A stretch of DNA of 64,000 nt, from contig CAVPXI010000007.1 in assembly GCA_963709585.1 (NCBI GenBank), positions 64,001-128,000 of the forward strand, read 5' to 3'. The translations under genes and the position numbers were made by a program. The notes under the pieces are model-generated. The model had not been told where the DNA came from and made no database searches. It saw only the letters and a program-made list of their open reading frames with translations. Shown here piece after piece: positions 27,857 to 31,685 of this stretch (position 1 is the first letter of the stretch; every line of letters begins with the position of its first letter). Source of the DNA: Candidatus Dormiibacterota bacterium (lineage in GTDB: Bacteria > Chloroflexota > Dormibacteria > Aeolococcales > Aeolococcaceae).

Positions 27857-28779
27857 GGGTGGCGCTGCTCTCGGGAGGCACAGGGGGCGCGCGGCTCGCA
27901 ACCGGCCTGGCGGCGGTGCTCTCACCCGACGAACTGTCCATCGTGGCCAACACCGCCGACGACGACGAGTTCTGGGGTCTGCTCGTGAGCCCTGACGTCG
28001 ACGCGATCCTCTACCGGCTCGCCGGCATCTTCAACGAAGCGACCGGATTTGGCGTGCGCGACGACACGTTTCACGCGCAGGCGATGCTCGGGAACCTTGG
28101 CGAGCAGACGTGGTTCCAACTCGGAGACCGGGATATCGGCATGCACCTGCTCCGGGCCACGCTGCTGCGTGGTGGGCAGCGTCTGGCAGAGGCGGTGGCG
28201 CATCTGGCTCGGAGCTTCGGCATCAGGGTGCGGGTGATCCCGATGAGCGACGACCCAGTGCGCACCCGGATCCTCACCGATTCCGGCGAGCTGAGCATGC
28301 AGGAGTGGTTCGTGGGACAGCGGTGCCGGCCGGCGGTACGCGGGATGCGCCTCGCGGGGATCGAATCGGCGCGCCCCGCGCCGGAAGCCGTCGACGCTGT
28401 CGCCAACGCCGAGGTCGTGATCATCGGACCGTCGAATCCACTCCTGAGCGTCGATCCCATCCTCGCCGTCCTCGGCAAGGAGCTCCACCGGGAGCGCGTT
28501 GCCGTGGTCTCCCCGGTGGTCGGCGGCCGGTCGCTGAAAGGACCGACCGTGGACATGCTCCGGCAGATGGGCGAGGAGGCGAGCGCCCTGGGTGTGGCCC
28601 GCCGCTACGCCGGCATCGCAGCCACCATGGTCATCGACCGCGATGACGGGGCATTGGCCGAGCCGATCCGGGCGTTGGGAATGCGCCCGCTGGTCGAGGA
28701 CACGGTGATGGACGGCGCGCAGGGCGAGCGGCGTCTGGCGGCGTCGCTGCTCCGCGCCCTAGACATCCCACGGGGATAA
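27853..28779 (+). CDS. cofD: 2-phospho-L-lactate transferase; last codons supplied by the IS end
   Basis: LSGGTGGA, NTADD, SPDVD, WFQLGDRD, PMSDDPVRT, GPSNP, SLKGPT. Confidence 0.92.
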   Translation: MRVALLSGGTGGARLATGLAAVLSPDELSIVANTADDDEFWGLLVSPDVDAILYRLAGIFNEATGFGVRDDTFHAQAMLGNLGEQTWFQLGDRDIGMHLLRATLLRGGQRLAEAVAHLARSFGIRVRVIPMSDDPVRTRILTDSGELSMQEWFVGQRCRPAVRGMRLAGIESARPAPEAVDAVANAEVVIIGPSNPLLSVDPILAVLGKELHRERVAVVSPVVGGRSLKGPTVDMLRQMGEEASALGVARRYAGIAATMVIDRDDGALAEPIRALGMRPLVEDTVMDGAQGERRLAASLLRALDIPRG

Positions 28780-28783
28780 GTCG

Positions 28784-29998
28784 TCAAGCAGCAGCCTGAC
28801 GGATGGGTGGCCAGGCCACGCGTTCGGAGTAGCAGCAGCGATGTTCGAGACAGCCGTGGAGGATGCCGACGAGACGGTTGGCGAGGGCACGCAGCGCCTG
28901 ATGGTGGGTGTGGCCGCGGGCACGATGAGCCGCGTAATAGGCACGTGCGCCCGCTGAATGCGTCAGGGTGCAGAAGGCCCACAGGTAGAGCGCATCGGCG
29001 AGACGGCGGTTGCGCGTCACACGCGCCAGGACCACCGACCGAGTGCCTGAGGCACGAGTGATCGGAGCGCTGCCGGCATAGCAGCGTCGCGCTCTGGCAT
29101 TCTCATAGCGGGTCCGGTCGTCACCGAACTCCGCCAAGACCCGGGCGCCGAGGATCACACCAAGTCCGGGCAGACTGCGCAGGATCTCGGCGTCCGGGTG
29201 ATCTTCAAAAGCCTCGGCAAGCTCGGCCTCGAGGGTGGCGATCTGCGCATTGAACTCGCTGATCACGCGCACCATGGCCAGCACCGAGCTGCCATACGCC
29301 CTGGCGAGCAGCGGCGGCGGCGCCAGTTGCGGCGCACGCAGTGCGCGTTGCAAGGCCGCAGCGCGGGGGGCGATCCCGCGACGGCGCCCGCTACGCGCCA
29401 GCACCACCCGGAGCTGGTTGAAAGTCAGCCGCCGTCCTTGCTCGGGCGTGGGTGCTCGGCTGAGCAACGCCAGTGCGTCCCGACCGGCCAACTCCGTGCC
29501 CAGCGCGTCCAGTGCAGCGGGATAGAACTCCCGCAGCGCGCTGCGCAGCTGATTGGCATGCCGGACGCGCGCCCACACCAACGTCTGATGGGTGCGGGCG
29601 AGCACTTTCAGACTCTCCGCGAGCTCGCTGTCGCCCGCCATCGGGCGATGGTTCTGGCGATCGGTGCGGACCAACTCGGCCAACACCTTGGCGTCGCCCG
29701 GATCCGACTTCGCCCGCGACACGGTATGGCGATCGCGGTAGCGACTCACCGCGAACGGATTCAGGGCATACACCTGATACCCGGTGGCCACCAACCCTTG
29801 CACCAGCAGACCGCGGTCGGTTTCGATGCCAACCACCACGGTCTCGGGTTTCGAGGTGTGCGCCCCGACCAGCTCATGGATGCGTGCCAGGCCTTCGATC
29901 CCATCGGGGACGCGCGCCTTGTCGAGACGGGCTCCTGCCTCGTCAAGGAGACACACGTCGTGGTGCGCCTCCGCCCAATCGATGCCGAGGTAGACCAT
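28784..29998 (-). CDS. IS110-family DEDD recombinase/transposase
   Basis: GIDWAE (D), GIETD (E), KSDPGDA (D,D), SLPGLG, APITRASG with the conserved Ser, ALRALANRLV; frame intact. Confidence 0.95.
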   Translation of the reverse strand: MVYLGIDWAEAHHDVCLLDEAGARLDKARVPDGIEGLARIHELVGAHTSKPETVVVGIETDRGLLVQGLVATGYQVYALNPFAVSRYRDRHTVSRAKSDPGDAKVLAELVRTDRQNHRPMAGDSELAESLKVLARTHQTLVWARVRHANQLRSALREFYPAALDALGTELAGRDALALLSRAPTPEQGRRLTFNQLRVVLARSGRRRGIAPRAAALQRALRAPQLAPPPLLARAYGSSVLAMVRVISEFNAQIATLEAELAEAFEDHPDAEILRSLPGLGVILGARVLAEFGDDRTRYENARARRCYAGSAPITRASGTRSVVLARVTRNRRLADALYLWAFCTLTHSAGARAYYAAHRARGHTHHQALRALANRLVGILHGCLEHRCCYSERVAWPPIRQAAA

Positions 29999-30039
29999 GT
30001 GGCGCTCCTCCTGTGTGAACGCGACAACGAGCCGGAGGA

Positions 30040-30215
30040 GCATCGCGGCGCCCTAATGGATCAGTGCTCGGGGCACGACATCCCACCGGCCGTCTTGTCT
30101 CCTCGCCAACCGTCGGGGCCACGGTCTAGGCCTGGAGCTCAGCGCTCTGAGTTCGAAGAGTGGTCACCCGCCGGCGGCTCGGGAGCAGCTTGCTCCTCAG
30201 CCGAGCTGCTCGCCA
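30040..30215 (-). ncRNA. Putative bridge RNA (seekRNA) of the IS110 element
   Basis: 5' hairpin 30183-30211; a loop with ACTCT / hairpin / CCTAGA matching the target; a loop with GTGGGATGTC / hairpin / CCATTAG matching the donor junction. Confidence 0.8.
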
Positions 30216-30232
30216 CCCATTAGAGTCAACCG

Positions 30233-30643
30233 ATGGCCCATGAGCTTGCACTCGAGTACCTCCGCGCGAACCCGCGAGGCGTGCTCGCGACCTATCGACG
30301 CGACGGCCAGGCACAGCTCTCGCCGGTGCTCGCCGGCGTCGACGCGGAGGCTCGCGTGGTGATCAGCACGCGTGAGGGGGCGATGAAGGCGCTCAACCTT
30401 CGCCGCAACCCGCGCGCCGGTCTCTGCGTGCTCAGCGAACGCTTCTTCGGCGAGTGGCATGCCCTCGAGGGCGACGCCGAGGTTCTCAGCCTTCCCGATG
30501 CGCTGGAACCGCTCGTCGACTACTACCGTCGGGTCAGTGGAGAACACCCCGACTGGCAGGACTATCGCGATGCCATGGCACGCGAGCGCCGTGTGCTGCT
30601 GCGCATCACCGTCGATCGCAGCGGGCCGACGACGCAGGGATAA
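30233..30643 (+). CDS. PPOX-class F420-dependent oxidoreductase
   Basis: VLATYRRDG.AQLSPV, K..NLRRNPR, EHPDW..YR.AM..ERR. Confidence 0.9.
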   Translation: MAHELALEYLRANPRGVLATYRRDGQAQLSPVLAGVDAEARVVISTREGAMKALNLRRNPRAGLCVLSERFFGEWHALEGDAEVLSLPDALEPLVDYYRRVSGEHPDWQDYRDAMARERRVLLRITVDRSGPTTQG

Positions 30644-30650
30644 ACTCGGC

Positions 30651-31685
30651 TCAGGCCCCGCCCTCGCGCGTCCGGAGGCTGCGGAGGCGGGGCAACACGT
30701 CGCGGGCGTACAGCTCGAGAAATCGACGCTGGTCAGGGCCCGGGGCGTGAAAGATCAGATGGGTGAATCCGAGGTCCAGGTATGGACGGATGCGTTCCAC
30801 ATGCTCGTCGGGATCTGACGAAACGATCCAGCGGCCGGCGGCTCGCTCGATGGAAAGCTCGTCGGCGAGGCGCTCCATCTCGACCGCGTCCTCGACGCCC
30901 ATCTTCTCCTCGGCAGACAGCGCCAGCGCTGCCCAGTGCCGCGTGTCCGCACGCGCTCGGTCGCGATCGCTGTCGAATGAGACCTTCATCTCGATGGCCA
31001 GCTCGACATCGGCCGGGTCTCGCCCGGCTGCGCGTGCGCCCTCCATCACCGCCGGGAGCAGCGTGTCGGAGTACAGCTCCATGCCCTTGCCGCTGGTGCA
31101 GATGAGTCCGTCGGCGACCCGGCCGGCGAGCCGTGCGGCCGACGCTCCCGCGGCGGCGATGTAGATCGGGATCGGCGTCGCCGGCCGATCGTAGATGGTG
31201 GCGTTCCGGGTCCGGTAGTACGTGCCGTCGAAGGTGACCCGGTCGCTCGTCAACAGCGTCTGGATGAGCGTGACCGCTTCCTTGAGCCGCGCGAACCGCT
31301 CCTTGGTGTCCGGCCAATCGATGTCGAGCGGCGCCTCGTTCATCAACTCACCGGTACCGACTCCGAGCCAGATGCGGCCGGGGAAGAGGGTCCCGAGCGT
31401 GCCCATAGCCTGCGCGACGATCGCCGGGTGATAGCGGAAGGTCGGGGTGAGCACGCTGGTGCCGAGCGCGATCCGGCTGGTCGCCTGACCGGCCGCCCCC
31501 AGCCACGTCAGCGAGAAGGGGGCGTGACCGCCGCTGTGCCGCCAGGGTTGAAAGTGATCGCTGATCGCGGCGGTGTCGAAGCCGCACTGCTCCGCGACCA
31601 CCGTGAAATCGAGCAGGTCGGAGGGACTGAACTGCTCCGCCGAGACCTTGTATCCGAACCGACGCTGGCGAGACAAGGCGCCCAT
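30651..31685 (-). CDS. fgd: F420-dependent glucose-6-phosphate dehydrogenase (LLM class)
   Basis: GYKVSAEQF, SDHFQPWRH..GHAP, GTSVLTPTFRY, ICTSGKG, HAPGPDQRRFL. Confidence 0.88.
   Translation of the reverse strand: MGALSRQRRFGYKVSAEQFSPSDLLDFTVVAEQCGFDTAAISDHFQPWRHSGGHAPFSLTWLGAAGQATSRIALGTSVLTPTFRYHPAIVAQAMGTLGTLFPGRIWLGVGTGELMNEAPLDIDWPDTKERFARLKEAVTLIQTLLTSDRVTFDGTYYRTRNATIYDRPATPIPIYIAAAGASAARLAGRVADGLICTSGKGMELYSDTLLPAVMEGARAAGRDPADVELAIEMKVSFDSDRDRARADTRHWAALALSAEEKMGVEDAVEMERLADELSIERAAGRWIVSSDPDEHVERIRPYLDLGFTHLIFHAPGPDQRRFLELYARDVLPRLRSLRTREGGA

Follow-up and report, generated by a model that had tools for sequence, protein, structure and literature searches.

An IS110-group insertion sequence from a Dormibacterota genome with a predicted bridge RNA in its left end

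The 64,000-nucleotide stretch of a Candidatus Dormiibacterota genome analysed here (the window; contig CAVPXI010000007.1, positions 64,001 to 128,000) carries an insertion sequence of the IS110 group. The 225-nt left end of this element appears, with a probability of about 0.9, to encode a bridge RNA. This bridge RNA belongs to the class described in 2024, in a family distant from IS621. The analysis covered the anatomy of the element, the conservation of the RNA fold, the covariation between guides and DNA, a conserved split promoter, the catalytic residues of the recombinase, and three genome copies inserted in identical 9-bp sites. The fold conservation and the covariation support the original prediction, made from the letters of the window, that the leader is an IS110 bridge RNA with a target loop and a donor loop.

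Most members of the family come from metagenome-assembled genomes that are labelled Dormibacterota or Acidimicrobiia/Actinomycetota. The results leave the known mechanism unchanged. They provide a complete guide map, together with natural evidence for the strand rule, the CT core, the handshake guides and the junction promoter, and the family alignment offers a ready covariation set in a lineage far from IS621. The suggestion in the original prediction that this might be a candidate new programmable system was an overstatement, since bridge RNAs were predicted in 85.7% of the IS110-group elements of ISfinder according to Durrant et al. 2024 (PMC11208160), and since the protein family is already named RNA-guided by NCBIfam (NF033542).

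Boundaries, copies and genomic setting of the element

The element is 1,461 bp long and lies on the minus strand (window 30223 to 28763; Table 1). The left copy of the CT core forms the start of the element (30223-30222), and the right copy is located just beyond its end (28762-28761). The left end is a non-coding leader of 225 nt (30223 to 29999), and the right end comprises 21 nt. A long left end holding the guide RNA, combined with a short right end, distinguishes the IS110 group in the published description (PMC11208160). By the same features, namely the long left end, the short right end and the predicted RNA in the left end, the element is assigned to the IS110 group and not to IS1111.

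Three near-identical copies, the window copy included, are present in the genome and differ at 3 positions in total. Their left and right flanks are GGTTGACTCTA and TAGGGCG, CCAGACTCTA and TAGGTCA, and AGTGACTCTA and TAGGCTC, so that GACTCTA before the element and TAGG after it are common to all three. In the window, the element interrupts the 3' end of cofD, and a PNPOx-like gene is thereby split off from cofD. The insertion altered the C-terminus of CofD from ALESTDGP-stop to ALDIPRG-stop (window 28761-28779 and 30224-30235) and broke the overlap between the cofD stop codon and the ATG of the PNPOx-like gene, the two genes now being 1.46 kb apart. Neither an empty site nor a circle junction turned up in the contigs of four soil runs; these contigs stop at the element ends, with no joint across the element.

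To place the element in its family, one genome per species was scanned, which yielded 514 relatives, and the analysis continued with the 80 best. Among these best 80 of 514, the nearest relatives (83-94% amino acid identity) were from metagenome-assembled genomes labelled Dormibacterota, and the others (about 60% identity) were mostly from genomes labelled Acidimicrobiia or other Actinomycetota. A recognisable left end was present in 75 of the 80 loci and a right end in 50. The five loci without a left-end motif in range (L010, L021, L034, L054 and L081) were dropped, and the right-flank tests exclude the 25 of 75 loci that have no right-end motif. All left junctions read N-CT-AATGG (or AATAG), and all right junctions read GGG(A/G)TGT-CT-N. 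Because CT alone is common to every left and right junction in the family, the core is CT and not TCTA, as had been proposed; the additional T and A are shared in the window element because its target happens to resemble the donor.

Table 1 Features of the element and its predicted bridge RNA, in window coordinates
Feature	Position	Strand	Basis
IS110-group insertion sequence	28763..30223	-	same ends in three genome copies and family-wide junctions
Left half of target, GACT	30224..30227	-	identical in three insertion sites
Right half of target, AGG	28758..28760	-	identical in three insertion sites
Right-end terminus GTGGGATGT, left half of donor site	28763..28771	-	sequence and family junctions
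5' stem-loop GAGCAGCT..AGCTGCTC	30183..30211	-	read on sequence
Target-binding loop, basal stem 5' arm, ending in CAC of conserved CACT	30160..30178	-	helix 1
Left target guide, CGA(A)CT + core-guide CA	30148..30155	-	covariation with left flank, 77 pairs
Target-binding loop, apical hairpin GAGC-GCTGA-GCTC	30135..30147	-	helix 2
Right target guide, CCT + AG (core complement)	30126..30130	-	pairs with flank CT-AGG; covaries, 50 pairs
Predicted target-loop handshake guide, AC	30124..30125	-	analogy with IS621 (PMC11208158)
Target-binding loop, basal stem 3' arm	30105..30122	-	helix 1
Donor-binding loop, outer stem 5' arm GAGGAG, pairs with CTCCTC 30040-30035	30099..30104	-	helix 3
Donor-binding loop, inner stem 5' arm CGGC, pairs with GCCG 30049-30046	30089..30092	-	helix 4
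Left donor guide, GTGGGATGT + C, identical to right end	30077..30086	-	sequence; A/G covariation
Donor-binding loop, apical hairpin GTGC-CCCGA-GCAC	30064..30076	-	helix 5
Right donor guide, CCATT + AG, complementary to left end CT-AATGG	30053..30059	-	sequence
Donor-loop handshake guide, GG	30051..30052	-	covariation with target
Possible closing helix, GGCTCG with CGAGCC (30181-30176)	30028..30033	-	pairing conservation
Ribosome-binding site AGGAGGAG	30005..30012	-	six bases upstream of ATG at 29998
Recombinase gene, 404 aa	28784..29998	-	Pfam, NCBIfam, invariant catalytic residues, profile match to structures
-35 box TTGACG of split promoter, overlaps stop codon	28782..28787	-	conserved in right ends

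Conservation of the two-loop fold

The fold was assessed on an alignment of 66 distinct leaders, with a two-loop structure of 35 pairs (2,305 pair cells) that was derived partly from RNAalifold on the same alignment and partly from the window sequence. Standard pairs were found in 92.1% of the 2,305 cells, compared with 36-46% when the partners were slid, 23 of the 35 pairs had changed on both sides, and none of 500 shuffles reached any of the observed measures. Many G-U pairs in the leader helices are compatible with the transposase strand alone.

The 5' hairpin GAGCAGCT..AGCTGCTC of the original prediction is present at 30211-30183, and an equivalent stem-loop of 7 or more pairs forms in 65 of the 66 leaders (median 12 pairs). 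The basal stem of the target loop (helix 1) has 17 pairs, is 95.6% paired and contains 11 pairs changed on both sides, and the hairpin at its apex (helix 2) is 97.3% paired, with both-sided changes in all four pairs. For the donor loop, the outer stem (helix 3) is 78.5% paired, and the inner stem (helix 4) is 85.2% paired, with three of four pairs changed on both sides; the hairpin GTGC-CCCGA-GCAC at 30076-30064 (helix 5), which had been read correctly by eye, is 98.5% paired in the family. A further helix, CGAGCC with GGCUCG, might close the structure, being paired in 91.0% of 387 cells compared with 24-38% for slid partners and showing a few compensated changes; it is regarded as tentative because it excludes three pairs of the target-loop basal stem.

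Folded as a single sequence, the leader was no stabler than its shuffles (z = -0.56; 51 of 200 at least as good), and the two loops were not seen. An Rfam scan of window 28000-31000 at E values up to 1 returned no family matching the leader.

Target guides and the target site

Under the rule reported for bridge RNAs, each loop's 5' side pairs with 8-9 nt of the bottom strand and its 3' side with 4-7 nt of the top strand, the core being included in both sides (PMC11208160). Read from its sequences, the IS110 family studied here follows this strand rule of Durrant et al. 2024. The left target guide adjoins the conserved hairpin GAGC-GCTGA-GCTC on the hairpin's 5' side. Across 77 pairs, with kinship uncorrected, the 8 non-core bases 5' of the hairpin gave 5.00 matches to the left flank compared with 2.39 after swapping, and none of 2000 swaps reached the observed value. 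The match per position increased from 0.53 to 0.90 toward the core. These matches are short and noisy: counting the first core base, the median contiguous run is 4 nt, the window copy having 4 and the sister copies 5. On the other side of the loop, the 7 non-core bases before AG gave 4.64 matches to the complement of the right flank compared with 2.47 when swapped (0 of 2000 swaps; 50 pairs, kinship uncorrected).

AG is present in the 3' target guide in 61 of 62 target loops, and the 3' donor guide also has AG. The 5' guides carry the C of the core, and the second core base is matched in 23 of 62 target loops and unmatched in the other 39; for the left donor guide, it is matched in 5% of pairs and unmatched in 95%.

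In the sister copies, GACT+C and CCT+AG together spell the full conserved target, GACT-CT-AGG. The target is 9 bp long (4+2+3; GACTCTAGG), in agreement with the short target originally predicted. All three occurrences of GACTCTAGG in the genome are occupied, and no empty one was found in the genome; ACTCTAGG is present in 6 copies and GACTCTAG in 2. The number expected for GACTCTAGG from base composition (22) is too high, because words containing CTAG are rare in this genome. A 9-bp target with all of its genome sites filled illustrates the way in which an element of this kind keeps its copy number in check.

All strings and coordinates of the original prediction were present on the sequence, including the leader length of 225 nt, and the part that had to be redrawn is the target loop. 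There the left target guide had been placed at ACTCT (30161-30157), next to an internal hairpin CTCAG-AGCG-CTGAG and with TCTA as the core. In the window element and in L005, ACTCT is indeed the same as the five final bases of left flank plus core, which in the window copy is a match one base longer than that of the canonical register, and the CTCAG/CTGAG hairpin is able to form in the window sequence. However, ACT sits in CACT, the motif at which the basal stem closes, and this motif shows conservation of at least 90% over the 66 aligned leaders although their targets are unrelated; the two bases following CACT are C in 21% and T in 31% of pairs. Locus L013 also has CACTCT, yet its left flank ends in GATG-CT. 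CTCAG-AGCG-CTGAG is paired in 54.5% of cells, a level that 355 of 500 shuffles also attained, and the conserved G of GACTCTAGG is explained by the canonical register through the sister copies. That the earlier map is the working one is thus improbable. The ACTCT register and the CTCAG hairpin were rejected, and the covarying guide at 30155-30148 was adopted as the left target guide.

This left target guide is also where the window copy differs from its sisters, reading CGAACT+CA instead of the CGACT+CA of both sister copies, with an extra A at 30153 or 30152. The original prediction had described the recombinase system as intact, which agrees with the presence of all catalytic residues but does not account for this 1-nt insertion. 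The chances are about even that the window copy is not an intact system, the extra A crippling or shifting targeting so that the RNA of the sisters would be needed, or else that the extra A is an assembly error in the AA run and not a real guide variant. The A is missing from both sister copies and, in three soil metagenome runs (X1, X2 and X3), from the sole contig that each run has over this position, and it makes the 5' side of the target loop 11 nt long, compared with 10 nt in 55 of 62 loops (the 3' side is 9 nt in all 62). This length, however, is not absolute, since 11 nt occur in 3 of 62 distinct loops (the window's included), 12 nt in two and 14 nt in one, and L004 has GAAC opposite a GAC target, which suggests that a bulged A may be tolerated. 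Contigs also collapse repeats and drop rare variants, so that the absence of the A from the window locus is not demonstrable by contigs.

Donor guides and handshake bases

Both donor guides are exact matches to the element ends and had been correctly located in the original prediction. GTGGGATGTC at 30086-30077 is identical over 10 nt to the right end at 28771-28762, and CCATTAG (30059-30053) is the reverse complement, over 7 nt, of the left end CTAATGG (30223-30217). At the variable A/G position of the left donor guide, 95% of pairs matched compared with 50% after swapping (0 of 2000 swaps; 21 pairs, kinship uncorrected). In five elements, the left end is CTAATA and the RNA there reads TATTAG, both sides having changed (alignment columns 6/241). 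The loop segments covary with the flanks and the ends, the behaviour that had been proposed as a check, and the number of swaps reaching the observed values was 0.

In both loops, the two bases following the 3' guide suit the other loop's DNA partner and could therefore pair after strand exchange. For the donor loop, the first handshake base and the last target base before the core formed a Watson-Crick pair in 80% of cases compared with 52% when swapped (0 of 5000; 76 pairs, kinship uncorrected). For the target loop, all 67 leaders have A as the first handshake base, complementary to the invariant donor T beside the core, and AC at 30124-30125 was assigned the predicted role of the target-loop handshake guide by analogy with IS621. 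The original prediction had included this A in a guide CCTAGA (30130-30125), of which CCTAG was retained as the right target guide and the final A was reassigned to the handshake position.

The pre-2024 view of such elements offers another explanation, in which there is no RNA guide and the segments of the leader act as DNA, being terminal repeats or sites bound by protein. The matches on the donor side could, taken alone, be subterminal repeats. The target-loop segments, on the other hand, vary with unrelated host flanks, something that DNA repeats within the element are unable to account for, and the leader helices keep pairing through both-sided changes and through G-U pairs limited to one strand. 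Moreover, biochemistry and structures have been reported for the related IS621 (PMC11208160, PMC11208158). A purely DNA-based role of the leader is accordingly very improbable, even more so than the ACTCT map above, and the reading as a bridge RNA is preferred.

Recombinase, predicted junction promoter and a possible switch in the leader

The recombinase contains the Pfam domains DEDD_Tnp_IS110 (PF01548, 1e-37) and Transposase_20 (PF02371, 2.9e-15), and it scored 202.8 bits, with a cutoff of 140, against NCBIfam NF033542, "IS110 family RNA-guided transposase". For the protein alignment, 23 of the 81 available recombinases were used, and L048 was left out on account of an internal stop. D7, E59, D99, D102, S317 and G318 are invariant among the 23 aligned homologues and fall in motifs aligned to those of IS621 that hold its DEDD and Ser-Gly residues, reported as catalytic D11, E60, D102 and D105 together with S241 and G242 of the Tnp loop (PMC11208158); the motifs also align with ISCro4. 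Searching the solved structures with the single protein by phmmer gave no match, and the profile of the 23 homologues matched ISCro4 (9t56, 3.1e-15) and IS621 (8wt6, 1.4e-14). By these signatures, the recombinase is an IS110 family DEDD/Ser enzyme with all catalytic residues present.

Joining of the two ends would complete a promoter. The -35 hexamer, TTGAC(N), matches TTGACA at five or more of six positions in all 43 distinct right ends, and at all six in 31 of them, and it is located 17-18 nt upstream of the junction hexamer, which starts at the last right-end base (the spacer is 18 nt in the window element). The -10 hexamer, TCTAAT, arises from T+CT+AAT only once the ends are joined. In the integrated copy, a scan for sigma-70-like promoters and terminators found none. 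A junction promoter has been reported for IS621 (PMC11208158), and at the sequence level the element has the parts of one. RNA runs were sought among the listed sequencing runs that contain the element sequence, and none was found.

The leader might also double as a switch that couples RNA folding to enzyme synthesis, although we consider this rather unlikely. In such a switch, CUCCUC (30040-30035) would pair either with GAGGAG (30104-30099), a look-alike of the ribosome-binding site, which would give the bridge RNA fold, or with the true ribosome-binding site (30012-30005), which would block translation of the recombinase. Cognate duplexes between the arm and the ribosome-binding site were at -15.97 kcal/mol compared with -14.82 +/- 0.31 kcal/mol for swapped ones, and 0 of 300 swaps were as low (kinship uncorrected; L028 was skipped); in the window, the duplex was at -18.0 kcal/mol compared with -13.5 kcal/mol for the stem. 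The signal is weak, because any CCUC pairs with any GGAGG and relatedness was uncontrolled.

Within the recombinase gene, an antisense match to Rfam Ms_AS-4 (RF02464) was observed at window 29093-29174 on the plus strand, scoring 54.8 bits where the gathering threshold is 50. The match probably reflects conservation of the coding sequence for the helix-hairpin-helix region rather than a separate sRNA gene at this locus.

Proposed cycle

The transcription, RNA-protein assembly and chemistry of the element are inferred by analogy with the known systems. As in IS621, the element would leave as a circle, by excision or copy-out. Excision is reported to be less efficient than insertion and to use the same complex (PMC13626964), and a preprint proposes a copy-out route and a direct-transfer route (10.1101/2025.10.25.684509). 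The joined right and left ends would form the donor site GTGGGATGT-CT-AATGG, and the same junction would complete the promoter, with TTGACG in the right end, a spacer of 18 nt, and TCTAAT across the junction. The transcript would then fold into the 5' stem-loop and two internal loops. In the target loop, the 5' side would repeat GACT+C as it stands on the top strand in the target's left half, and the 3' side would complement CT+AGG; in the donor loop, the 5' side would repeat the right end and the 3' side would complement CT+AATGG. The DEDD/Ser recombinase would exchange strands at the CT core, after which the handshake guides could pair, and the element would enter GACT-CT-AGG.

Comparison with known systems

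The element resembles IS621 of E. coli, as described by Durrant et al. 2024 (PMC11208160) and Hiraizumi et al. 2024 (PMC11208158), in having the RNA in a long left end, in the order of a 5' stem-loop, the target loop and the donor loop, in the CT core, in the handshake bases following the 3' guides, in a promoter completed by joining of the right and left ends, and in the DEDD plus Ser active site. In contrast to IS621, its protein is beyond the reach of phmmer and linked by profile only (E = 1.4e-14), and it is longer (404 aa compared with the 328-residue IS621 chain). The family of the window element has a donor sequence of its own, GTGGGATGT-CT-AATGG; the target match of the element is shorter (4+2+3 bp), and the 5' guides in this family mostly leave the second core base without a match; the possible extra closing helix and the possible anti-ribosome-binding-site pairing are further differences. 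Among solved structures, ISCro4 (IS622; PDB 9t56; Perry et al., preprint 10.1101/2025.05.14.653916) was the best match to the family profile (E = 3.1e-15), a remote one, in which the RuvC-like domain and the Tnp domain are each aligned.

Among cultured organisms, the closest relatives are IS110 family transposases on Mycobacterium and Rhodococcus plasmids (for example NZ_CP025547.1 and NC_012521.1), with 58-60% identity over 98% of the protein, which are annotated only as "IS110 family transposase". The seekRNA elements of the IS1111 group, a subject of Siddiquee et al. in 2024, are said to have the RNA in the right end and long subterminal inverted repeats. They share the recombinase family and the guide logic with the window element, whose left end is 225 nt and right end 21 nt.

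Guides and targets of individual relatives

A natural analogue of retargeting by guide changes is locus L006, at the same host site on the other strand. This element (88% amino acid identity, in another Dormibacterota genome) occupies the orthologous cofD/PNPOx junction in the opposite orientation (L006:1279-2730 compared with window 28640-28761 and 30224-30340), and its CT comes from the opposite strand of the same CTAG. The guides of L006 are altered to fit, with ATGCC+CA for ACGCC+CT and CAACTCT for AGAGTTG.

Two elements of an Acidimicrobiaceae genome, L027 and L028, whose protein is just 61% identical, carry the guides GCGACT+CA and GGCCT+AG, and their sites, GGCT/GACT-CT-AGG, are nearly the target of the window element. 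In L069 (L069:1242-1290), the leader opens with the left-end segment doubled (CTAATGGGGATCGACC twice), and the right donor guide lacks three bases; it is probably a decayed copy.
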